64,000 nucleotides of DNA from contig OX597816.1 in the NCBI GenBank assembly GCA_951406725.2, positions 1,612,001 through 1,676,000 on the forward strand. The letters run 5' to 3'. Position 1 is the stretch's first letter; the number at the start of each line of letters is the position of its first letter. Made by a program: the position numbers and the translations under genes. The stretch is from Octopus vulgaris (taxonomy: Eukaryota). Positions 1,946 through 62,193 of the stretch are shown here, piece by piece. The notes below the pieces were generated by a model that was not told where the DNA came from, searched no databases, and saw only the letters and a list, made by a program, of their open reading frames with translations.

Positions 1946-4586
1946 TAAGACAACTGGAGGTCTCTAAGGGACACCTTGCTGAGAGCCACTGACCAGATCT
2001 GTGGTTGGTGCAAAGTCCCCTCAAGACCCAAAATAACATGGTGGTGGAACAATATTGTTGACAGGGCTATTAGACAAAAGAAACAGGCTTGGAAGGACTG
2101 GAAGAACGGTGGTAGCAGGGAATTATATCAGACTGCCAGAAGGGAAGCTAGGAGACAGGTGTATTTAGCCAGAGGGGAAGCAAATAAGAAAAAATTTGCC
2201 AATGTTCTGTGCCGTGAGGACCAAAGACTTGAGGTATTTCTTGTTGCAAGACAGTGTGTGAGAGAGAATCATGATGTTGTAGGAGAGAAATGTGTCCGCA
2301 TGGATGATGGTTCTCTTGCACTAAATGAGGATGCAAAGAGAGAGGTTTGGAGACACCATTATGAAAGGTTGCTGAATAAAGAAAATGAATGGGATAAAGA
2401 GAGTCTGCCGAATGTCGACCCAACAGAGGGACCAGCTATCCGAGTTGATAGTTCCGTGGTAGCTAAGGCAATTAGAAGCATGAAGACAGGGAAAGCCCCA
2501 GGCCCATCAGGAATTACTGCAGAGATGCTCAAAATATCTGGCAGTGTCGGCTATAACCTAGTCACCCGTATAGTCAACCAGGTGATACACGAAGGAGTCA
2601 TACCCAATGACTGGTGTAGCAGCATACTAGTCAACTGCTACAAAGGTAAAGGTGATGCCCTAGATACAAATAATTACAGAGGTATCAAGCTGTTGGATCA
2701 GGTAATGAAGGTTACGGAGAGGGTCATAGCCCAACTAATTAGAGAGAGAGAGTTAGTTTAGATGAGATGCAGTTTGGGTTCGTGCCAGGGAAAAGCACCA
2801 CTGATGCTATATTCCTGGTAAGACAGCTGCAGGAGAAATACCTAGCCAAAGATAAGCCCCTGTACCTGGCTTTTGTTGACATGGCAAAAGCCTTCGACAG
2901 GGTCCCCCGATCCCTTATCTGGTGGTCAATGAGGAAACTAGGGATAGATGAATGGTTAGTGAGAGCTGAGCAAGCCATGTACAGGGACACTGCTAGTAAG
3001 GTGAGGGTTGGCAACGAGTACAGTGAAGAATTCCGGGTAGAGGTTGGGGTTCACAAAGGTTCAGTCCTCAGTCCCCTCCTATTTATTATAGTCCTCCAGG
3101 CAATAACAGAGGAATTCAAGAAAGGATACCCCTGGGAGCTCCTCTATGCTGGTGACCTTGCTCTAATTGCTGAGTCACTATCAGAACTGGAGGAGAAGTT
3201 TCAAGTGTGGAAGCAAGGATTAGAATCGAAGGGCCTTAGAGTCAACCTAGCCAAAACCAAAGTCCTAATAAGTAGGAAGGTAGACAAATCACAAACGCCT
3301 TCAGGTAGATGGCCTTGCTCGATCTGTAGAAAAGGCGTAGGTAGAAACTCTATAAGATGCACCAAGTGTAAGCTATGGACACATAAGAGGTGCAGCAATG
3401 TCAAGGGAAGGCTAACTAGGAAGATAGTTTTTGTATGTGGCAGATGCTCAGGAGCAATAAACACTGAAAATGTGCAGAGACCAACGTCTACCATGTTCCA
3501 GGGAGAAAAACTAGAAGTAGTTGATAGCTTCCGCTACCTAGGTGACCAAGTCAGCAGCGGGGGCGGGTGTGCTGAAAGTGTAACTGCTAGAGTAAGAATA
3601 GCCTGAGCAAAGTTTAGAGAGCTCTTACCCCTGCTGGTGACAAAAGGCCTCTCACGCAGAGTAAAAGGCAGACTGTATGATGCATGTGTACGAACAGCCA
3701 TGCTACATGTTAGTGAAACATGGGCCGTGACTGCTGAGGATATGTGTAAGCTCGTAAGAAATGAAGCCAGTATGCTCCGATGGATGTGTAATGTCAGTGT
3801 TCATACTCGACAGAGAGTAAGTACCTTGAGAGAAAAGTTGGACCTAAGAAGCATTAGTTGTGGTGTGCAAGAGAGACGTTTGCGCTGGTATGGTCATGTG
3901 ACGAGAATGGGTGAAGATAGTTGTGTGAAAAAGTGCCACACCCTAGCAGTGGAGGGAACCTGTGGAAGAGGTAGACCCAGGAAAACCTGGGACGAGGTGG
4001 TGAAGAACAACCTTCGAATTTTAGGTCTCACCAAAGAAATGACTAGAGACCGAGACCTATGGAAGTATGCTGTGCGTGGGAAGACCCGGCAGGACAAGTG
4101 AGACTACAACCCATGGCCTCTATCTGGGATGTAGCCAGTCGACTTATGCATACCTTTCCTTCTTGGGACACAAAACTCCACTTGTGAAGACCTGTTGAGG
4201 CAAGTGGAAATCAGAACCAAAATCGAAGTCGATCAACATCAATGAAAATTGCAGCTGTGATACCAGTGCCGATGGCACGTAAGCGAACCATCCAATCGTG
4301 GCCGTTGCCAGCGCCGCCCCGACTGGCCTCCGTGCCGGTGGCACGTAAAAAGCACCATCCGACCGTGGCCGTTTGCCAGCCCTGTCTAGCACCTGTGCCA
4401 GTGGCACGTAAAAAGCACCCACTACACTCACGGGTGGTTGGCGTTAGGAAGGGCATCCAGCTGTAGAAACATTGCCAGATCAGACTAGGCCTGGTGCAGC
4501 CTTCTGGCTTCCCAGACCCCAGTTGGACCGTCCAACCCATGCTAGCATGGAAAGCGGACGTTAAACAATGATGATGATGATGATGA
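1946..4586 (+). mobile_element. 5'-truncated RTE-clade LINE with PHD-containing RT, inactivated (copy 1, muskelin intron 5)
   Basis: ORF pieces 1976-2761, 2767-3606 and 3637-4101 carry RT motifs (KAPGPSG, NYRGIKLL, QFGF, KAFDRV, YAGD). There is a frameshift in the (GA)n near 2745 and a TGA at 3604. The element ends in a (GAT)n tail. Confidence 0.93.
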
Positions 4587-4836
4587 TATATATATATTTG
4601 CCATGTTGGACTACTGAACGCAACACATTTTTTTTCATTCTCTCTTTCTCTATTTCCTCTCATTCGTTTCTGTCGAAGAGTGTAGGCTCGAAGCATTAAA
4701 GGACTTAACCATTTTTCCCAAGTGTCAAACTAATACACTTACTTGTTTATACACATGTCTTTGTCTTTTGTTTTTCTGAAAATTTCAAACCCATGCTAGC
4801 ATGGAAAGCGGACGCTTAATGATGATGATGATGATG

Positions 4837-9876: not shown

Positions 9877-10228
9877 CTGTAGAAATAAAAAGCAATAATG
9901 TATATAAGTGTGTTATTTCTCTTCGGTATAGCAATACTAATAACCAGTTGTTAGAAATCGCTGGACATATGCTTTAGAATAATGCATTAGGTGAGTGAAG
10001 AGCAAAATATTAATTAATAAATGGAAAGGGAACAGGAGTTACATGATCAACTTAATTACCTTACAGCTGTTTCTGCTATAAAAAGCAGTGCACTCAGAGC
10101 TAGGTGCTTGTACAATATCTAATAGCTTCCTCAGAGCCCAGTACATTGCTTCTGAAGTTAATTATGTAATTCTTGTTCCATTGTCATTCATGAATTAATA
10201 ACATGCAAAAAGATGCATATATATATAT

Positions 10229-12263
10229 AGAGAGGTATCAAGCTGTTGGACCAGGTGATGAAGGTTACGGAGAGGGTCATAGCCCAACTAATTAGAGAGA
10301 GAGTTAGTTTAGATGAGATGCAGTTTGGGTTTGTGCCAGGGAAAAGTACTACTGATGCTATATTCCTGGTAAGGCAGCTGCAGGAGAAATACCTAGCCAA
10401 AGATAAGCCCCTGTACCTGGCTTTTGTTGACATGGAGAAAGCCTTCGACAGGGTCCCCCGATCCCTTATCTGGTGGGCAATGAGGAAACTAGGGATAGAT
10501 GAATGGTTAGTGAGAGCTGTGCGGGCCATGTACAGGGATGCCGCTAGTAGGGTGAGGGTTGGAAATGTGTACAGTGAAGAATTCCGGGTAGAGGTAGGAG
10601 TCCACCAAGGCTCAGTACTCAGCCCCCTCCTATTTATCATAGTCCTCCAGGCAATAACGGAGGAATTCAAGACAGGATGCCCTTGGGAGCTCCTCTATGC
10701 TGATGACCTTGCTCTAATTGCTGAGTCGCTATCAGAACTGGAGGAGAAGTTTCAGGTGTGGAAACAAGGATTAGAATCGAAGGGCCTCAGAGTCAATCTA
10801 GCTAAAACCAAAGTCGTAATCAGTAGGAAGGTAGACAAATCACAAACACCTTCAGGTAGATGGCCCTGCTCGATCTGTAGAAAAGGTGTAGGTAGAAACT
10901 CTATAAGATGCACCAAGTGTAAGCTATGGACACATAAGAGATGCAGCAATGTCAAAGGAAGGCTAACTAGGAAGATGGTTTTTGTATGTGGCAGATGCTC
11001 AGGAACAATAAACACTGAAAATGCTCTGAGACCAACTTCCGTCACTTTCCAGGGAGAAAAACTAGAAGTAGTTGATAGTTTCCGTTACCTAGGTGACCAG
11101 GTCAGCAGCGGGGGCGGGTGTGCTGAAAGTGTAACTGCTAGAGTAAGAATAGCTTGGGCAAAGTTCAGAGAGCTCTTACCTCTGCTGGTGACAAAAGGCC
11201 TCTCGCACAGAGTGAAAGGCAGACTGTATGATGCGTGTGTACGAACAGCCATGCTACATGGCAGTGAAACATGGGCCGTGACTGCTGAGGATATGCGTAA
11301 GCTCGCTAGAAATGAAGCCAGTATGCTCCGATGGATGTGTAATGTCGGTACTCACACTCGGCAGAGTGTAAGTACCTTGAGAGAAAAGCTGGACCTAAGA
11401 AGCATCAGTTGTGGTGTGCAAGAGAGACGTTTGCGCTGGTATGGTCATGTGGCGAGAATGGATGAAGATAGTTGTGTGAAAAAGTGCCACACCCTAGCGG
11501 TTGAGGGAACCTGTGGAAGAGGCAGACCCAGGAAAACCTGGGACGAGGTGGTGAAGCACGACCTTCGAACTTTAGGTCTCACTGAGGAAATGACTAGAGA
11601 CCGAGACCTCTGGAAGTGTGCTGTGCGCGAGAAGACCCGGCAGGACAAGTGAGTCCATAACCCGTGGCCTTCTACATGGGATGGAGCCAGCCTACGTATG
11701 CATACCTTCCCTTCTTGGGACACAAAACTCTACTTGTGAAGACGTGATGAGGCAAGTGAGGATCAGAATCGAAATCGATCAATGGAAATTGCGGATGTGC
11801 TACCAGTGCCGGTGGCATGTCAAAACTCTGCTTGTGAAGACCCGTTGAGGCAAGTGACGATCAGAATCGAAATCGATCAATGGAAATCGATCAATGGAAA
11901 TTGCAGATGTGTTACCAGTGCCGGTGGCATGTAAGAGAACTTTCCGTTTCGCGACCGTTGCCAGCACCGCCCCGTTTCGTGTCCGTTGCCAGCCTCGCCT
12001 GGCCCTCGTGCCGGTGGCACATAAAAAGCACCATCCATTCGTGGCCGTTTGCCAGCTCTGTCTGGCACCAGTGCGGGTGGCACGTAAAAAGCACCCACTA
12101 CACTCACGGAGTGGTTGGCGTTAGGAAGGACATCCAGCCGTAGAAACACTGCCAGATTTGACTGGGCCTGATGAAGCCTTCTGGCTTCACAGACCCCAGT
12201 AGAACCGTCCAACCCATGCTAGCATGGAAAACGGACGCCAAACGATGATGATGATGATGATGA
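10229..12263 (+). mobile_element. 5'-truncated RTE-clade LINE with PHD-containing RT (copy 2, muskelin intron 1), uninterrupted 468-aa ORF remnant
   Basis: ORF 10246-11652 has QGSVLSP, YADD, FRYLG, RRLRWYGHV and RGRPRKTW. The 3' UTR has a duplicated block and a (GAT)n tail. Confidence 0.95.
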
Positions 12264-13590
12264 TATATATGCATCAAAATCAAATTCGATGACTGGCATC
12301 TGTGCTAGCGGGGTGCAAAGAGCACCGTACGAGTGTGATCGTTGACAGAGCAGCTAACCGGCATATAAAAGGCACCATTCAAGCGTGATCGTTACAAGTG
12401 TCGCCTTACTGGCAAATGAGCCTCGTGCTAGTAGGGTGCTAAGAGCACCATCGGAGCGTGATTGTTGCCAGAGCGGCTACCAGGCTTCCGTGCCGGTGGC
12501 ACGTAAAAGCCAGCATTCGATTGTGATCGTTACCAGCATCGCCTTACTGGCATCTGTGCCGGTGGCATGAGTAAAAAGATTCGAGCGAGGTCGTTGCCAG
12601 TACCACCTGACTGCTGCTCCCCCCCCCCCACCGTGCCGGTGGCACATAAAAGTACCAACTACACTCTCAGAGTGGTTGGCATTAGGAAGGGCATCCAGCT
12701 GTAGAAACTCTGCCAGATCAGATTGGAGCCTGGTGCAGCCATCTGGTTCGCCAGCCCTCAGTAAAATCGTCGAATCCATGCTAGCATGGAAAGCGGGCAT
12801 ATGATGATGATGATATATATATATATATATATATTAAAACAAAATCAAACACACATACACAGGGTATGTGTGTTGTTAGTTCATGGGTCGGTTGCACATG
12901 TGTGCTTGGTTTTGTCTATATACTTTGAGCTGCTTCTAATTCATATTTGAATATATATATATATAAAAATATATATATATATATATAAAATGTATATAAT
13001 TCATAGGTGAGAATCAGATCTTCTTTGTATAGAATACACCTAGTAGTGTTCAAGAGATTTAAACTTGAGCAGGTATAGAAGTAAATGTAGCGATAAGCCA
13101 TTTAGACAGATCAATATACAAAGTATATTAAATACGTGAAATACAAAAAAATAGAAGATATATATATGTTTAAATACAAAAACCGTCCGATTAACACAGA
13201 ACACAAATAATGTAGATGATTAAAGGGATTGGAGAAAAGTATTACAGATTCAACAGCTGTTTCTGGGGGCTCAGGGGTCCACAATAATGTTTGTAGATTG
13301 ATCCCTGAGAGCTACATGCTTCTGTGGAGTGCTCAGCCACTTGCATCTTAATTTCACGAGCAGGCTGTTTTGCTGATCAGATCAACTGGGGCCCTCATCA
13401 TCATAACCAATGCAATGCCAGTTTATATCAAGAGAACCAATAGATTCTTTTGGGCTCTCTTTACAGACGAGTTCTTTCTTTCTTTCTTTCTCTTATTCAA
13501 TTGTAACACTAAGGTCAATTAGAATTACATCAGGCATTTATCAATAGAAAATATTTACATGTCTTCAATACATTCACTGTCATTGTCAGC

Positions 13591-16763: not shown

Positions 16764-19624
16764 GCATAGTCCGTCACTCCGACACAAACCTCTCCTCATA
16801 GGTTATTTATTCGCATCAAGGGAAAAATAATTACAAATCTTTTAACAAACTTCTCTCTACTTTAAAAATATCTTTATATATTAAAATAGTCTTCGTTATA
16901 ATTTTAGACACTGTTTTATATTCTTTCAGGAACGTATATTTTTTTTTTAAACAAAGGTCAAGTTAGGCAGGAAGTGACTTCTCCTTCCATTGGCAGACGA
17001 CATTTTATGTACCAAGACAGAAAGATAAATAAAATGGAATAAATTTTGTGTTTAAGGGTTTTAGCATATTATATAAAACAAGAAGAAATCGAGTCATATT
17101 TTCATTGATAGGTTTTCGTTACTTTTCTCCAGGGAAATATTGTTTTGCTTCAGAAAAGTCGCAAATGAGATTAATAAAGTTATGAGAAAGTTATTTAACT
17201 TGAACTGTCTTAGATTTAGCTTATTTTTCTTTTGCTCATTTTAAGATATCAATTTCATAGGGAACAGTCTCCTATTACACACACGATTATCTAACAAACA
17301 CAAGAATGTAAATAGCTCAAGCTTAATAAAGACATTCACAGACAGGCAACTACATCAGAGGGGGGGGGGATATTGGTATTGTTCCGTTCAAAACAGCCTA
17401 CTTGTCAAATCCGATCAGATGGGATCATATGATCGTTCGTGAATTTCCGTAAAATTTATCTTATTTCTATACTCCTCTTTGGAAGGTGATATTTGCTTTG
17501 AAGTGAAAGATGGACGTGTGTGGGTGTGAGAGAGAGAGAGAGAGAGCGAGCAAGTGAAGGTGTGTTGTCGTGTATCTTTTTGCCTGTATGTGTAAGGGAC
17601 ACTCTCTTTCATGCACACGCACACATACATGCATACAAAAAAAGATGTATGTATGTGTATATGAAAAATAATGCGTGCATGTGTGAGTGTGAGGGACAGT
17701 GAGTGCCATTTACACATACATACACAACACACACCTTCACTCATTCTCTCTCTCTATCTCTCTCTCTCTTTCACACACACTCATACACACATGCATACAC
17801 ACACACATACCAAAAAAGATGTATGCATAAAAAGGAGAGAGGGCAGTTGCATGCAGATGGGACGAGGACGGTCGCATAAAGAAGCGTTGACCATTTAAAG
17901 TGGAGGGAAGTTGTTGGAGGGGGAGACCAAGGAAGACGACATAGGACAAAGTAAAGGAGATGAGAGAGGAGGACGGAGATACGTGGTGCTTTGCTATATT
18001 TGAGAAGACCTGCCCACCACAACAGAATGGAGATCCTAAAACCAAGGTGCCATGTGAATAACATTGGGGTGGGTGCTGGTGCCATATCAGAAGAATTGGT
18101 GATGGTGCCACATAAACAGCACCCAGAACACTCTGGAGGGGTTGGCATTAGGAAGGGCTTCTAGCCATAGAAACCATGCCAATATAGACAATGAAACCTG
18201 GTGTGGCTCCTAGCCTTGTCAAGTCATTCAGTCCATGGCAGCATGGAATAACACATTAAATGATGATGATGATGAGGATGATGATGATGATGAAGAAGTC
18301 ACTTCAGCTACGTTTTATAACAAAACTAAACTGGCACCCAAATGTGTGGAACCTAGTTTGCTCCTCTCCCCAGAATTCCAGGCTTTGAGCCTATAATAGA
18401 AAGGGTTCTATGTTTTATGTCTGGTATTTCACATACACAAAGTTGCAGGCATAGCTTTGTGGTAAAGCAGTTTATTTCATAATCGTACGGATCTAAGTTC
18501 CATCTCACTGCATTGCACTTTGAACAAGAATCTTCTGTTGTGAATTTCGGTGGAAGAATTGCTTAGGAGTGAAACTGATACGTGGAAATTGTATGAAAGC
18601 CTGTTATATCATCATCATCATCATCGTTTAACGTCCGTTTTCCATGCTAGCATGGGTTGGACGGTTCGACTGGGGTCTGGGAAGCCAGGAGGCTGCACCA
18701 GGCTCCAGTCTGATCTGGCAGAATTTCTACAGCTGGATGCCCTTCCTAACACCAACCACTCCGAGAATGTAGTGGGTATTTTTTACGTGCTACTGGCACA
18801 GGAGCAGAGGAGGCTGGCAATGGCCACGATCGGTTAGTGCTTTTTACGTGCCACCAGCACTGAAGCCAGTCAAGGTGGCACTGGCCATGTTCAGATGGTA
18901 CTTTTTATGTGCCACAGGCATGGGTATCACAACTACAATTTCCATTTGATTTTTGTTTTGATGTTGATGTACTTGACTCAATAGGTCTCCTCAAGCACAG
19001 CAGGGCACCCTACAATCCAAGGTAAGCACAGCAGGTCGTCCTATGATCCAAGGTACTTTTCAATGGGCCGGGGCTTATTATGCAAAACTGGTGTATGATA
19101 CAACCGTGAACTCACTTTATTTGTCGGGTCTTCGTAGTCACAGCATACCTCCAGAGGTCTCGGTCTTTCGTCATTGCCTCTGTGAGGCCTAACGTTCGAA
19201 GGTCATATATATCTATATCTATCTACATGTATATATATATCAATTTATCCTGACTGACCACTAGCCAGCACACTTTCCCTCTCTTCATTTTTTTATTTTT
19301 CTCTCTCCCCGCTTTGCTTTTTTTTTCCTGTCTTCCTGTTTTTGATTTGACCTTACAAATACATTCCCAACTTTTAAATCACTTCAAATAAACCCTAGAT
19401 TCAATAACACCACTTACGAACTCTATGCTTGGAATGACTAATTTTAAATACTATTGGAACTTACTCACAAGGTATAGGAAACTTATATGTATACCATTCT
19501 GCCTAAATAATGGAACTGCAGATACAATATCCCTGCATATCTCACATCTATTTTCATTCCTCCACTTCACTCTCTATTTCATATCTTCTCTAGAATAACT
19601 ATTGCTTAACCATTTTCTCACACC

Positions 19625-34499: not shown

Positions 34500-37290
34500 T
34501 TGACTCGCACCTATTACTGCCTTGGTAGTCCATCGATCTCCGATGAACGCGTGGTCTGTGGTCTCAGCAGTCAACGGTGGGAACGCATGTGATATCTTTA
34601 TCCAGTGAACCATCTGCAGAGACAGTGCTGCCTGGACACCTGAAGCTTTCGACACAGCTCGACCCCTTCAATGGTGATGGCTGGCTTAGGTTTTCTTGTA
34701 TTCGGAGCTGCCTGGAGCAGGACCTCCATCGAAAAGTTTGGATGCCTTGGCGAAGCGATTGACGATGGTCTGGATGTGGTTTTCCTTGTGAGCCATGAGG
34801 GCACAGGCGTCCGCGAAGAGGGCTTCGAAGATGAGTCTTTCCTTGGTCTTCGCTTTAGCAGAGCGGCCATCGGTTCGATACTTGATGTACACGCCCAGGT
34901 TAAAGAACAAGTTGAACACTGGGGCGAGGACACAGCCGTTTGACCCCATTTGAGCTGTATAAGGAGTTCGTGTGGTCCCCGTTAGAAAGGACCTGTCCTT
35001 TCATGTTGTGCAAGAATTTGATCAGGGTCGGCAACCCAGCTTGCTGAGGATGATCCATAAGGCTTCCCGGTTGACTGTCAAACGCTTTGGTCAGGTCAAC
35101 GAACACAGGACCATCTGCTCCTCAATGCAATTCTCCTGAACTTGTCGCTCAGCAAAAACTATATTTTATGGTGTTGCGTCCAGAGCGGAAACCACACTGG
35201 GCCTCGGACAGGTTACTCCCGGAGATATTGGCGATGAGTCTGTTGAGGAGGATGCGGGCGAGGATCTTGCCTGCTATGGAGAGGGGGGGGGAGATCCCTA
35301 TGTAGATGCCGCAGTTTGTCCTGGCTCCTTTGATTTTGTATAGAGCGACTATGGTGGTGTCTCGCAGATCTGTTTGGATCTCTTCTTGGTCCCAGGTAGG
35401 CAAGAGGATGTCCTGGAAGGTGCTGAAGGCTGTGGATCCAAGTGACTGGAACAGTCCAGCAGGTATTCCATTCCTTTCTGGTGCTTTGCCGCAGGTCATT
35501 TGTTTGTTTGATGGCGGTCTGTACCTCTTCTTCGCTAGGTGGGAGGTCCAGACCCGTTGATGGCTTTGATGGCGTTAAACAGCTGATTGGAGTTCTTTGT
35601 GTCGGTATAGAACCACATTGGGCCTCGGAAAGGTTGCTCCCGGAGATGTTGGCGATGAATCTGTTGAGGAGGATGCAGCCGAGGATCTTGCACTGTCAGT
35701 TTTCTTTTCCCACCAAGCATCTGGCCTGGTGCGGAGTTCGCGCCTTGCATTCCTTGAACCTATCACGTCGTGAGACATAGACGAGGTGGTTCTGTCAGTT
35801 GATATAGTAACTCACTTCACTTTCAGCAGGGCTTGGATGACTTCATTGTTTTCGTCAAATCAGTCTTGATGATGCCTCCTCTTGGGGCCAAGGACTGCTT
35901 TGACTGTCTCAGTGACCGCTTCTTTGAACTGGTTCCATTGCTCCTCTGGTCTTCCAGTAAGCAGGCCTGCTGCATCGAGTCTTTCATCAAGGCTGTTCTG
36001 GAAGTCCCACTAGTATTGAGTAGACTTGACTGTTGCCATGTCGAAGGCTTGCTTGATGATATTAAGGTGGTGGCGGACTATGTGAATGCCGAGCTTGGTT
36101 CGAACAAGGCGATGGTGCGTCCAGCAGTCTGCGCCGCGCATTGCTCTGGTGGTAAGGACGTCACTGATCTCTCGCGGACGGATGGTGATGAGATGCCATT
36201 GTCTGGTTGCACCCATGTGTTCTTGTATTTATCAGCCTGCCTAAAGACTGTGTCTGCGATGAGCAGTTCATGTTCTTCACACTTGCTGAGCAGGACAAGC
36301 CCGTTGCTGTTCGTTTTGCCCACTCCGTGCTTCCCGATCGCCCCTCGGCCCTCGTTGCTGTCACTGCCAATTCTGGTGTTGAAATCATCCAGCAAAATAA
36401 GCTTGTCAGTGGTGGTGGGCGTGGTGTGTAGAACTGCCCCTTGACTTCCTCCGTGGATGTCATAGTGGGGGTGTAGGCGCTGATGATAATAATGAACCGC
36501 TTGTTGCACATGGGGAGGCGGATCCTCATCAGCCTTTCATTGACGCCAGTCGGGAGATCAGAGATCTGTTTGAGGAGTTTGGTCCCGATGGCGTGTCCAA
36601 TCCAGTGGATGCAGTCTTCGTTCTGGATCTTTCCTTTCCAGAAAAAATTGTATCTGTTAGATTCGGTCACCGATCCCTCTTCGACCAATCTGATTCGCTC
36701 AAAGCGGCAATGTCAATGTTATACCTTGAGAATTCGCTGTCCTTTTCTGGGGTCTTGAGAATTTGTCACGATCTTGAAGAGTACGTACGTTCCACGTCCT
36801 AATGACGAGTTTCTTTCTCATTTGGAATCGACTGCAAATGGGTAAGTCTAACACCTGCAGTAAACTGGTCAGACGGTGTCGAGCAAGCTTTCTTTAGGCC
36901 ACCTTTTCTAGGCCCCTCCCTTATTGGGGTGAGCAGCGCATTCCTAAAAAGGTTGCTCAGTTGCCTGAGATGCCGCCGGAGTCCTTCGCTGCCCCGAGTT
37001 CGAAAAACAACCACCAAAGTCCCAGGCCGCCAACATACAGGTTCCCAATCGCTACCTCTACCTGCCACTTTCGCCATTTATTCTTCACCGCATGACTAGG
37101 ATACACAGAGCCCTGTGCGAGAGGTTGATTAAAGTGGAAGAGTTGATTCACGTGGACAATCACACTCTCTCGGCAGAAGAGACCCTGATCCAGTGGCACG
37201 GAGAACCGTTACGTCTGGGGACCTCCCTGCTGCAGTGGATGACCAGAACATCCCTATGCCATGAACGTGTAAAGGGAACTGGTTGCTTCT
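34500..37290 (-). mobile_element. Degenerate RTE/BovB-like LINE (APE endonuclease + RT) in CPT2 intron 1
   Basis: Fragments FFWKGK...NERLMRIRLP...IISAYTPT, GKHGVGKTNSNGL, LSIAGKILARILLNRL, QCGFR, FVDLTKAFD, GCVLAPVFNLFF and LFADACAL. Many frameshifts and GC-rich relative to the flanks. Confidence 0.88.
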
Positions 37291-44646: not shown

Positions 44647-44834
44647 TTCAGAATTTCTGAAGAAAAGCAAAGTACCGACTTACCATTTTCAAAAGAGTCT
44701 CCCCAGACTTCCAATACCTAAACTAGAAGACACATGTAGAAATTATCTGCTGACCCAGAAGGCCTTACTCAACGAAACACAATATCAGTCAACGGAGAAA
44801 ATTGTCAAAGAATTTGAACAAAACGAAGGCAAAA
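44647..44834 (+). CDS. CPT2: CPT2 exon 3 (SEFLKKSKVPTYHFQKSLPRLPIPKLEDT...NEGK)
   Basis: Carnitine acyltransferase signature SLPRLPIPKLEDT. Acceptor ttccag, donor A|gttagt. Confidence 0.95.
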
Positions 44835-45119
44835 GTTAGTAAAACAGCTGTTATTTTCTTGTTTTATGAAATACAAAGACAAAAAGCAAAAAATGGCTGT
44901 CCCTTTATTTGTTGACCCATTTTGGGTGGGTGGGGGTTACATGGCTGTGTGGTTAACAAATTTATTCCCCAAGCATATGGTTTCTGGTTCAATCCCACTG
45001 TGTGGTGCCATAGTCTCAGGCCCATCAAAGCCTTGTCCATAATTTGCTAAACAGAAATTGAAAGAAGCCCATCATATATATATATAGTTCTATATTTAAG
45101 AGATGAGGAATTATGGACA

Positions 45120-45412: not shown

Positions 45413-45707
45413 ATCATCATCATCATTTAGCGTCCGTTTTCCATGCTAGCATGGGTTGGACGGTTCTACTGGGGTCTGTGAAGCCAGAAGGCTTCATCAG
45501 GCCCAGTCAAATCTGGCAGTGTTTCTACGGCTGGATGCCCTTCCTAACGCCAACCACTCCGTGAGTGTAGTGGGTGCTTTTTACGTGCCACCCGCACTGG
45601 TGCCAGACAGAGCTGGCAAACGGCCACGAACGGATGGTGCTTTTTATGTGCCACCGGCACGAGGGCCAGGCGAGGCTGGCAACGGACAAGGCTGGCAACG
45701 GACAAGG

Positions 45708-46410: not shown

Positions 46411-47027
46411 ATATATATGCTGGACTGACTCCTGTGCAGGTGGCAAGTGAAGAAACACCATTTCGACCCTGTTCTTGAGGAGATCCATTGAGTCAAGTAC
46501 ACCGACATCAAAATCAATGGAAACTGCAGTTGTGATCCCTGAGCCAGTGGCACGTAAACAGCACCATCTGAAGGTGGCCGATGCCAGCGCCGCGTAGACT
46601 GGCTTCCGTGCCGGTGGCACGTAAAAAGCGCTATCCGAATCATGGCCGATGCCAGCGTCGCCTCGATTGGCTTCCGTGCTGGTGGCACGTAAAATGCACC
46701 AATCCGATCGTGGCCGTTGCCAGCCTCGCCTGGTACCTGTGCAGGTGGCACGTAAAAAGCACCCACTACACTCGCGGAGTGGTTGGCATTAGGAAAGGCA
46801 TCCAGCCGTAGAAACTCTGCCAGATCAGACTGGAGCCTGGTGCAGCCTTCTGGCTTTCCAGATCCCCGGTCGAACCATCCAACCCATGCTAGCATGGAGA
46901 ACGGACGTTAAACGATGATGAGGATGATGATGATATATATATATATATTTGAAACCACTGTTATTATTATTGTTTTTATTATTACATATATATATATACA
47001 TGTGTGTGTGGGTGTATATATTTTCAG

Positions 47028-48067: not shown

Positions 48068-48508
48068 TGCCGGTGGCACGTAAAAAGCACCATCCGTTCG
48101 TGGCCGTTGCCGGCGCTGCCCCAACTGGCCTCGTGCTGGTGGCACGTAAAAAGCACCATACATTCGTGGCTGTTGCCGGCGCTGCCCCGACTGGCCTCGT
48201 GCCGGTGGCACGTAAAAAGCACCATCCGTTCGTGGCCGTTGCCAGCGCCGCCCCGACTGGCCTCGTGCTGGTGGCACATAAAAAGCACCATCCGATCGTG
48301 GCCATTTGCCAGACTCGTCTGGCACGTAAAAAGCACCCACTACACTCATGGAGTGGTTGGCGTTAGGAAGGGCATCCAGCCGTAGAAACATTACCAGATC
48401 AGACTGGGCCTGGTGCAACCTTCTGGCTTCCCAGATCCCCGGTTGAACCGTCCAACCCATGCTAGCATGGAAAGCGGACGCTAAACGATGATGATGATGA
48501 TGATGATG
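48068..48508 (+). mobile_element. Isolated RTE 3'-UTR fragment with a 66-bp tandem hairpin array (similar fragments at 8700-9245, 12290-12812, 18608-19204, 45415-45705, 46500-46932, 49930-50290, 60230-60963, 61110-61390)
   Basis: GTGCCGGTGGCACGTAAAAAGCACC units at 48068, 48133, 48199 and 48265, a partial unit at 48321, then the LINE tail and (GAT)n. Confidence 0.88.
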
Positions 48509-52629: not shown

Positions 52630-52660
<31 letters not shown>

Positions 52661-55290
52661 GTGATGTCTATTTTCTATGCTGGCATGGGTTGGATGGATT
52701 AACAGGAGGTGGCCACCTAGAGAGCTGCCTGAGATCCATTTTGTCTGTTTTGGCAGTTTCTGTGGCTGGATGCCCTTTCTAATGCCAACCACTTTATAGA
52801 ATGTACTGGCTGCTTTTTACATGGCACCAGCACCCACAAGCCTACAAAACTAGGGCCTCTCAGTTGAGAGAGGGACATAGAGAACATGGCTGTATGGCCA
52901 GCACTTTACTTAGCTTGATGTGTCTTCTCAAACACACCAGGCCACTGGAAGTTTGGTCCTTTGTTAATCCCCTCAGTGAAGCCCAGTATCTGAAGTTCCT
53001 TTCTCGTCGCTTCATCTCACGTCTTCCTGGGTCCATCCCCTTCCTCACATTCCCTCCACAATTACAGATCATCACCTCTTCATACAGCTCTCCTCATCCA
53101 TATGCATCACCTTAACCAAACAGGTGGAGTCTTCTCCCTTTTAACACAACATCTGATACCTCTTATACCCAGTTTATCTCTCAAATCACTTACACTCTGT
53201 CGTATATGCACATTGACATTACCCATCCAGTGGAGCATACTGGCTTCATTTCTTTCAAGCCTTTGCATGTCCCCAGCAATCACAGCCCATGTTTCACTGC
53301 CATAGCAGCATAGCTGTTCGTACACAGGCGTTGTACAATCTGCCTTTCACTCTGAGGGAGAGGCCCTTTGTTACTTTGTCCATTCTTATTCTAGCAGCTA
53401 CACTTTAGAACTACCTCCTCCACTGCTAACTTGGCTGCTTAAGTAATGGAAACTGTCCACTACTTGTAAGGGTCCCCTTGGACATTCGAGGGAGTCTATT
53501 TTCTGTCCATTCCTGGCCGTTTAATGTCCCTGCACATCTGCCAAATGTAAAGACAACTTTCTCTGTCAGTCTTCCAGTGATACCACTGCACCTCTTAGGT
53601 GGCCATAGCTTGCACTCGGTACAATTTATGGAATTTCTCCCAACACCTTTTCTACATATCGAACAGGGCCATCTCCCAGAAGGGATCAGTCATTTGTCTG
53701 TTTTCCTACTTCTTAGAACTTTTGTCTTTGCTAAATTAACTCTAAGGTCCTTTGATTTCAGACCTTGCTTTCACACCTGAAATTTCTTTGCTAGTTCTAG
53801 TAGTGATTCAGCAATAAGAACAAGGTCATCAGCATAGAGGAGCTCCCAAGGGCAGCCCAACTTAAATTTGACTATTATAGCTTGGAGGACTATGATAAAC
53901 AAGAAGGGGCTGAGAACCAATCCTTGGTGAATTCCAACCTGTACATTAAATTTCTTGTTATATTTATTGCTGACTTTCACCTTACTGACATGGCTTGTAC
54001 AACTCTCACCAACTACTCATCTATCCCTATCTTCCACATTGCCCTGCAAAGAAAGGAGTAAGGGACCCTGTCAAAGGCTTCTCCATGTCAACAAAAGCCC
54101 AAATACAGAGGTTTATTTTTGGCTAAATATTTCTCCTGCAGTTACCTAACCAGGAATAGAGCATCAATGCTGCTTCTCCCGGACACAAAACCAAACTGCA
54201 TCTCATCTCAGCTAACTCTCTTCCTAATTAATTGAGTGGTGACCCTTTCTGGAACTTTCATCATGTGGTCCAGCAATTTGATACCTCTGTAATTATTTCT
54301 GAGGCATCAATTTTACCTTTATGACAGTTCACTACAATTCTGCGATACCAGTCATCGAACATGACTCCCTCATGGACAGCCTGGTTAACTATGCGGGTGG
54401 CTAGACTATAACCCACTCCACCAGATATTTTAAGCTTCTCAGCAGTGATGGGCCAGGGGCTTTTCCTTAATTGTTTATTCTACTAAGCTACTACCAATCT
54501 GAATAACCAGTCCTTCTGTTAGGGCCATGTTGGCTAGGCTCCCCTTCTCCCATGCATTCTCTGTATTTAGCAACCTTTCGTTGTGGCACTTCCAAGCCTC
54601 CTTCTTTGCAGAATTACTAACCTCAAGGGAGCCATCATCCATGTGAACACACTTCTCTCCCACAACATCACAATTTTCCTTGACACATTATGTTGCAATC
54701 TGAAACATCTCAAGACCCTGGTCCTTACATTGCACAACATTAGCAAACTTCTTTTCTGCTTCTGCCCTGGCTGAGTATACCTGTCTCCTAGCCTTCCTTC
54801 TAGCTACCTGATATAATTCTCTTCCAGTCCTTCCAGTCCTGTTTCTTCACAGCCCTGTCTGCTACGTTGTTCCACCACCACATCACCCTAGCTCGAGTTG
54901 AGACTTTGCACCAGCCACAGCTTTGCTCTGTGGCACTCAGTAAGTTGTCTTGTAGGGACTTCCAGTTGCCCCCTATGTTGCATGTCTATAACTCCACCTT
55001 CTTGTTAAATGTTTCAATTAGGGTCTTTCTAAATCCCTCACTCTTCCCAGGGTCCTTAAGCTTCCAAATACCTCTTTTCCAGACTGGTCTGCTTCTTGGA
55101 TCCTTCTAGCCTCAAGTCTGAAGTCACTAAGGACTCACCTATGCTGGGGGGAGTGCATTCTTCATTTGTCAGCAACCCTGCATCTCACTTTCTGGTGAGA
55201 ATGTTGTCAATGTGGCGAGCATGGCCACCCGGTTGATAGCTTGTCAAGTGACTGGCTGCTTTCCTGAAGTTGGTGTTGTCAACCATTAGC
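52630..55290 (-). mobile_element. Older, degenerate copy of the same RTE LINE (CPT2 intron 6)
   Basis: Fragments GCPWELLYADDLVLIAESL, GEKCVHMDDGSL and YGSETWAV...RNEASML, with a (ATC)n tail near 52630-52660. Confidence 0.88.
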
Positions 55291-61000: not shown

Positions 61001-61389
61001 TTGGAAAAGGATGCGTGATGCATATATACATACATATATGTACATACCTACATATGTTTTCTCATTGTGTCTACGTTTTTTGATGTCCTGTACCCATATA
61101 TGCATGTATATCATCATCATCATCATCATCATCGTTTAACGTCCGCTTTCCATGCTAGCATGGGTTGGACGGTTCAACTGGGGTCTGGCAAGTCCGAAGG
61201 CTGCACCAGGCCAGTAAGATCTGGCAGTGTTTCTACAGCTGGATGCCCTTCCTAACGCCAACCACTCCGAGAGTGTGGTGGGTGATTTTATGTGCCACCG
61301 ACACAGGTGTCAGACGAGGCTGGCAGACGGTCACGCTCGGATGGTGTTTTTTTTATGTGCCACCGACACAGGTGCCAGACGAGGCTGGC

Positions 61390-61424
<35 letters not shown>

Positions 61425-61950: not shown

Positions 61951-62046
61951 ATATACGTGCAATTGTTTTAATGTGTGCTTTTCCTTTTTTTCTTATATTT
62001 AAATGTGGTGACAGTGTGGATATAACACTTGAATTTGGTTTTCCAG

Positions 62047-62193
62047 GCAACATCAAACCAGCTGAGGAAATCCTGGCTCATCTAAAATACATCTGCAATA
62101 ATCCTCGCCCTGTTGCAGATTACCCGGTCGCTCAGATGACAACCGAGAACAGAGATGTTTGGGCTGATGTTCGACAGCATTTTATAGAAACAG
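62047..62193 (+). CDS. CPT2: CPT2 exon 9 (NIKPAEEILAHLKYI...TTENRDVWADVRQHFIET)
   Basis: AHLKYI and ENRD-WA motifs. Acceptor ttccag, donor G|gtaatg. Confidence 0.95.

Follow-up and report, generated by a model that had tools for sequence, protein, structure and literature searches.

A PHD finger within the reverse transcriptase of an abundant octopus RTE-type LINE whose young copies lie in CpG-poor DNA

Results

A zinc finger inside the polymerase

Analysis of a 64,000-nt stretch of Octopus vulgaris DNA (the window) confirmed a genuine C4HC3 PHD finger inside the reverse transcriptase (RT) of an RTE-type LINE. Young copies of this family were biased toward CpG-poor DNA, and this compartment bias was observed for the PHD family only, in comparison with two PHD-less RTE families. 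The finger (10867..10998, + strand), identified by Pfam, by profile match and by its pattern, runs in frame in the RT palm from C1 (10867-10869) to C8 (10996-10998), with a Trp two residues before the His (10927) and a Phe two residues before C7 (10981), exactly the spacing and aromatic landmarks that an earlier note on this DNA had claimed. It is flanked by GLRVNLAKTK (10783-10812) and the motif-7 hairpin of the RT in one stop-to-stop frame; the frame was continuous as noted earlier, but measured 473 aa, not 468 aa. The spacer between motifs 6 and 7 (10813..11082, +) comprises 90 aa, consisting of the PHD and two poorly conserved linkers, compared with 26 aa in PHD-less relatives.

The Pfam PHD profile matched the isolated segment with an E value of 3.7e-6 and 27.3 bits (cut-off 24), and scored 22.2 bits, below this cut-off, within the whole window ORF. 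AlphaFold2 modeled the finger with a pLDDT of 88-95 (90-95 in the core). A structure search with the PHD model returned TAF3 (Z 5.0, rmsd 3.7, 59 aligned) and Pygo (Z 4.8, rmsd 2.2, 49 aligned); the fold searches returned mostly PHDs, with modest Z values, and Foldseek with the same model gave no match at an E value of 0.001 or better. A chance cysteine pattern was rejected, since the C4HC3 pattern appeared in none of 20000 shuffles of the ORF.

Copies of the element in the window

The finger lies in a 5'-truncated copy, whose open frame (10231..11652, +) encodes the RT (YADD at 10696), the PHD and the thumb/wrist, and which shares 98.9% identity with a natural copy whose frame spans 1059 aa. 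Its 3' UTR of ~610 nt (11653..12264, +) ends in (GAT)7. An (AT)n tract occupies the 5' junction (10217..10229), and a short (AT)n tract is also present directly 3' of the tail. The flanks at 10213-10229 and 12262-12277 are mutual reverse complements, GATGC-(AT)n and (AT)n-GCATC, and the insertion target of this copy resembles a short palindrome with a TA tract in its middle.

Two further copies were identified by alignment. Copy 1 (1948..4590, +; 92% amino acid identity) is interrupted by a frameshift and a stop, and all eight ligands of its PHD are intact at 3316-3447, as had been claimed. In the old decayed copy (52638..55286, -), the PHD remnant (about 53534-53665) was still recognizable as described earlier, but only six of the eight ligands were left, the His having been replaced by Pro and C7 by Phe. 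This copy lies antisense between two carnitine acyltransferase exons at 44708-44902 and 61953-62192 (+); a downstream exon best matched CPT2 (E 1e-19). The window also carries a decayed BovB-like RTE-type LINE (about 34600-36700, -), which lies in its most CpG-rich part (observed/expected ratio, o/e, 0.77-0.84); most of that part is sequence of this LINE itself.

The last ~280 nt of the 3' UTR were also found as short elements elsewhere in the window (45413-45688, 46640-46935, 48229-48507, 61113-61390, 18608-18880 and others). These elements are abundant, have similar 5' start points and mark CpG-poor loci; they could be either a SINE sharing the LINE tail or products of truncation at a hairpin repeat. 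An Rfam search with the LINE 3' UTR gave a chance match only.

The octopus family and its full-length element

The closest named proteins were those of Octopus vulgaris (90%) and O. bimaculoides (83%). A first look at the size of the family gave 23804 candidates, and the 150 that were scored were all 99-100% identical over 107 aa. A sequencing-run search listed no RNA data set holding the element. The 1059-aa frame was present in seven of the 20 copies fetched for long frames, and contains an APE endonuclease, the RT, the PHD and the thumb (Pfam EEP and RVT_1); these seven copies also have in common a 3' UTR of ~610 nt and the (GAT)n tail. As judged from this frame, which is preceded by a 5' region of ~500 nt, the element shows the RTE-type trait of a single ORF with APE and RT. 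Short tandem repeats form the 3' tail of RTE-clade LINEs, and a pattern search detected a (GAT)n tail in 35 of 40 copies. The AlphaFold2 model of the full ORF (mean pLDDT 88.5) showed an intact L1-like ORF2 fold, with human L1 ORF2p as the best structural match (Z 27.8, rmsd 6.2, 625 aligned).

Several rearranged copies were seen. At one locus (L031, 1-1530), an inverted second family copy lies directly upstream of the full-length copy. Two old copies located 2 Mb apart (L056 and L058 on G000:C11), which are 92% alike over the element, share an in-frame deletion of about 207 nt that removed the PHD and the preceding strand; they may represent a small non-autonomous subfamily mobilized in trans. 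Other deletions in the PHD region were found in L057, L060 and L074.

Conservation and origin of the insert

With the RT-PHD region as the query, 157 of 281 candidates were matches, and the best 120 of them, at 45-55% identity, were analyzed. A one-off insertion in the flagged copy was rejected, because 119 of these 120 homologs, at ~50% identity, kept all eight ligands. We also carried out a search that was blind to the PHD, with the RT up to motif 6 as the query. Among the best 120 of 2553 matches, 91 showed 60-70% identity, and 89 of these fit the PHD profile, the other two being broken at that point; the remaining 29, at 43-44% identity, were Hemibagrus proteins with a 26-aa spacer and a PHD in 0/29. 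The PHD as a general feature of RTE elements was therefore rejected, since it was missing from the other RTE types sampled.

A quick IQ-TREE analysis of the RT up to motif 6 included 48 PHD rows (47 of the 118 eligible homologs and the octopus copy) and 14 PHD-less rows. In this midpoint-rooted tree with few outgroups, a single branch (SH-aLRT 96) separated the PHD rows from the PHD-less ones, with the Hemibagrus type adjoining them. A PHD-less RTE used as the query against representatives at 50% identity added three useful outgroups, the other matches being near-identical catfish copies. A single gain of the PHD in a LINE lineage is likely rather than proven. In the RT tree, which held RTE-type rows only, the family grouped among RTE-type sequences, including the RTE-2_OV family. 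One ENA protein of 1038 aa (P0094), whose RT loop holds two PHD fingers in tandem, was the earliest-branching PHD row and sits on a long branch.

Named hosts were few, namely two octopuses, the catfish Neoarius graeffei and records labelled as lucinid clam symbionts, the last of which are probably host DNA. The Atlas cluster automatically named PHD/RT was commonest in Mollusca. The Neoarius graeffei protein (P0004), annotated under a host gene name, is nested in the tree among relatives and shares about 54% identity with the octopus element; horizontal transfer of this element may have occurred. A Pfam PHD search of the genome and the Atlas identified no donor of the PHD.

Selection was judged by protein-column conservation. 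The non-ligand PHD columns were conserved at 0.47 compared with 0.51 for the endonuclease in the 120 homologs, and at 0.52 compared with 0.54 in 55 new matches of the PHD-blind search, while the linkers around the PHD scored 0.21-0.39 overall and 0.38-0.39 in the same 55 matches. This pattern of conservation indicates that the PHD finger is under purifying selection.

The insertion site corresponds to loop 6a of R2

Residue 196 of the window ORF aligned to R2Bm 666, and the PHD insertion between motifs 6 and 7 coincides, to within a few residues, with the RT6a position of R2; this equivalence was drawn from local alignments ending just before the loop. According to excerpts from PMC10499050, the R2Bm loop that lies between motifs 6 and 7 (loop 6a, 672-677) recognizes bases in the upstream target motif, nicking is blocked when the loop is deleted, and the loop was reported as R2-specific. 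The vertebrate R2 loop 6a wedges into the upstream DNA, as stated in passages of PMC11601368. Because it aligns to the R2 loop 6a site, the PHD may occupy a loop turned toward the target DNA in related enzymes.

What the finger could bind

The closest solved PHD was that of Pygopus (profile match E 1.2e-6), and the other best solved relatives were PHF23, TAF3 and PHF13, which like Pygopus are H3K4me readers. Portions of PMC2726290 describe the K4me cage of Pygo1 as walled by W366, Y341 and D352 on a base of V350 and A356, with E360 and I357 also required and H3K4me3 binding abolished by mutation of E360. In the sequence alignment, the hydrophobic cage equivalents were kept, with Y/W/F/H at the Y341 position in 114/120 homologs, V/T at V350 in 119/120, S/A at A356 in 120/120 and W/Y at W366 in 120/120; in the window, alignment to Pygopus placed these residues in or next to 10867..10998 (+), as W10861, V10888, S10900 and W10927. 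The Trp at H-2 was found in 116/120. In contrast, the acidic residues of Pygopus were lost, with D/E in only 2/120 at D352 and 5/120 at E360, and the equivalent of E349 was Gly in 120/120. A complex prediction of the PHD with two Zn and residues 1-35 of octopus H3 gave a score of 0.01, which was counted neither way.

These features bear on the view that the finger is a nucleic-acid clamp for target-primed reverse transcription (TPRT), gripping upstream DNA or template RNA, with the insertion bias arising from another part of the element. The position in the same loop as R2 6a would fit such a clamp, as would the mean net charge of +7.0 (119 homologs), the K/R residues at the two positions after the His (98/120 and 111/120), the missing acidic H3 contacts, and the near-universal retention of the PHD by the close RTs of the PHD-blind search. 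A basic plant PHD, that of VIN3, showed no H3 binding and weak DNA/RNA binding in the portions of PMC9640981 available. On the other hand, sister RTEs are abundant with a spacer of 26 aa and no PHD, a surface Trp and an aromatic residue at the cage positions are conserved, and the compartment bias was seen in the PHD family alone. We consider the clamp reading rather unlikely.

Readers of H3K36me3 bind methyl-lysine close to nucleosomal DNA. The combination of an aromatic pocket and a basic surface would suit methyl-lysine near nucleosomal DNA, or nucleic acid alone, better than the free N-terminus of H3. The earlier proposal of a chromatin-reading module grafted into the polymerase was thus upheld as to a conserved module of PHD fold, but not as to the reading of the H3 N-terminal tail, given the lost acidic residues and the basic domain.

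Young copies lie in CpG-poor DNA

To locate the copies, we measured CpG o/e, as a proxy for germline methylation, in about 3 kb of 3' flank with family sequence masked. Ratios below 0.6 were found in 34/40 flanks of young PHD-family copies compared with 14/40 random loci and 10/40 PHD-less RTEs (7/20 for the RTE-2_OV-type, that is BovB-type, family and 3/20 for a second family). The medians were 0.28 and 0.42 for the young PHD copies (20+20), and 0.80 for random loci (n=40), 0.76 for the BovB-type RTE (n=20) and 0.75 for the second RTE (n=20), the last being somewhat older (93-98%); the P values of the PHD copies against these three were 2e-7, 2e-4 and 4e-7, respectively. Among copies at least 98% identical to another, the value was 0.24 for the PHD family (n=16) and 0.76 for PHD-less copies (n=18). 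The contrast persisted at all three distances measured, the largest being 5 kb, and when 23 controls from the same contigs were used (P 3e-5). Six of the 40 young copies were exceptions, at CpG o/e of at least 0.6. Flanks of older copies were CpG-poor in 14/20 (median 0.44), a result of little weight since these copies had been chosen by similarity to a CpG-decayed copy.

The association was also seen when positions or genes were taken first. Among 40 random 5-kb loci, family sequence was present in 10/12 CpG-poor and 0/28 CpG-rich loci (P 8e-8), and nine of the ten loci with family sequence held 3'-end pieces. Five genes of the carnitine acyltransferase family were CpG-poor in 13/14 stretches, which are not independent, and carried family sequence in 12/14, whereas a sixth acyltransferase gene, 300 kb long and CpG-rich, carried it in 0/6 stretches; one exon pair of the CpG-rich C5 acyltransferase gene gave no identification. 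Old BovB-like fragments were found twice in 60 loci, both times in CpG-poor DNA.

Could this distribution have arisen after insertion, by selection or by methylation seeded at the family and at the short elements derived from its 3' end, with the PHD serving, for example, protein stability or evasion of host factors? Family sequence is dense in CpG-poor loci, so that cause and effect could be reversed, and the copies examined are all fixed. However, 21 of the 40 young flanks were free of family sequence over about 3 kb and yet CpG-poor (median 0.39), copies that are 98-100% identical would not have had the time to lose CpG over kilobases, and the equally young BovB-type family showed no shift. 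Selection, moreover, should make insertions in broadly expressed genes rarer, not commoner. A post-insertion origin of the pattern is accordingly distinctly unlikely.

TpG was raised beside the CpG depletion (1.28-1.32 compared with 1.14-1.23), and the two together are the expected trace of gene-body methylation. In O. bimaculoides, according to the available text of PMC9476566, methylated CpGs cluster on the bodies of broadly expressed genes and are near-absent from transposons. Taking the methylome from that species, the CpG-poor DNA around the copies likely represents germline-methylated gene bodies. Histone H3 gene flanks, taken as a rough stand-in for unmethylated promoters, had a CpG o/e of 1.09; since the flanks of the copies were CpG-poor, promoters do not appear to be the target.

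This result bears on whether the finger is a canonical H3K4me3 reader that directs insertion into promoters. The identity of its best solved relatives and the Trp at H-2 favor such a reader, but the flanks of the copies (0.28-0.52) contrast with those of the histone H3 genes, and the acidic contacts are missing; we regard this role as very improbable.

A purine-pyrimidine microsatellite followed 18 of the 35 tails (5/40 tails were missed by the pattern), compared with 7% of random positions. Insertions of the PHD family were often next to (TA)n tracts, and the 3' ends of the PHD-less families often adjoin similar tracts, which were uncounted.

Discussion

The suggestion in the earlier note that the module may steer integration gained a measured compartment bias relative to two PHD-less RTE families, while the PHD as its cause is deduced from a single family. 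The two PHD-less families used for comparison differ from it over the full length of the ORF; the PHD was thus not isolated as the cause, and the link between PHD and bias is a correlation of one family against two. On balance, we lean toward the view that the PHD is a built-in tether, with a putative ligand, that steers integration to methylated, transcribed gene-body chromatin and not to promoters. The tether may tentatively be thought to act through methyl-lysine plus DNA; DNA or methyl-CpG alone would be a doubtful basis, and a host elongation or chromatin protein a quite improbable one. The PHD-bearing loop would face the upstream target DNA, as R2 loop 6a does, the aromatic pocket would hold a methyl-lysine of gene-body nucleosomes (H3K36me3 or H3K4me1/2), and the basic face of the PHD would grip nucleosomal DNA. 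The ribonucleoprotein would be tethered to gene-body chromatin in this way, and the endonuclease would then nick the nearest TA tract. In the usual model, target choice by APE-type LINEs follows the preference of the endonuclease.

In its broadest form, which is speculative but a real possibility, this view describes an old animal LINE lineage with its own integration cofactor, in which a PHD at the 6a site would read H3K36me3 or methyl-CpG together with nucleosomal DNA and thereby direct TPRT into germline-active genes, the motif 6-7 loop serving non-LTR RTs in general as a place where targeting modules can dock.

A very abundant family that pairs an in-RT PHD with a measurable bias makes chromatin-guided TPRT directly testable. 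The finding also bears on the accumulation of repeats in octopus introns, and a loop of non-LTR RTs that can accommodate a folded domain is of interest for gene insertion tools built on retrotransposons. New here are the CpG-depleted flanks of the young copies, the first evidence of compartment-biased insertion. The PHD/RT architecture itself is visible in automatic annotation. The literature searched, mostly at abstract level, held no description of a PHD inside an RTE RT; Repbase and Dfam, which were outside this scope, may already note it. The PHD was unmentioned in the available parts of PMC13282606 and PMC10294476, and a term search of PMC10830420 found nothing.

Comparison with known systems

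The nearest RTE-clade LINEs sampled, that of Hemibagrus guttatus (P0138) and P0274, likewise have a single ORF with APE and RT and a short-repeat 3' tail, and form the sister group of the PHD lineage (SH-aLRT 99); they differ in the short spacer and the missing PHD. RTE-2_OV of Octopus vulgaris is similar in host genus, RTE type, single ORF and the mention of a zinc finger in the accessible sections of PMC9115989. Identity with RTE-2_OV was rejected, since the four published primers were exact in another family (L086) and had 6-7 mismatches in 20 here, and this RTE-2_OV-type family carries a C-terminal C2H2 finger, with neither a PHD nor a CpG bias. In genomic copies of the RTE-2_OV type (L141-L160), a short UTR was followed by a few ATT repeats, and the long microsatellite 3' UTR reported for the RTE-2_OV transcript is probably flanking DNA.

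Loop 6a of R2 (R2Bm 8GH6; R2Tg, R2Pm) is likewise an insert between RT motifs 6 and 7. It is short, however, whereas the octopus LINE, an element of the APE type, carries a folded zinc finger of 44 aa; the sequences showed no resemblance, and the two were probably gained independently. The Pygopus PHD (2VPB and others; portions of PMC2726290) resembles the LINE finger in the equivalents of Y341, V350, A356, I357, W366 and L382, while the LINE finger is without D352, E349 and E360, has shorter loops and shows a reversed charge.

In CR1/L2 LINEs, the PHD is found in ORF1 or at the N-terminus of ORF2, upstream of the endonuclease, as excerpts of PMC4120745 and PMC3708506 indicate, unlike that of the octopus LINE, which lies inside the RT. 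Seven of the nine LINE PHD subgroups listed in the excerpt of PMC4120745 best match the Pygopus entries 2vpb/3zpv, and there a targeting role was suggested, with function untested as of 2014.

A chromatin-binding module is associated with the landing site of a retroelement in several other cases. LTR elements have captured chromodomains (chromovirus) and an MBD (CopiaMBD), according to passages of PMC6673714. These systems, to which the octopus LINE is compared here together with LEDGF and the lentiviruses, carry the module on the integrase or obtain it from the host. LEDGF guides lentiviral integration. In the octopus LINE, by contrast, the module sits within a non-LTR polymerase.
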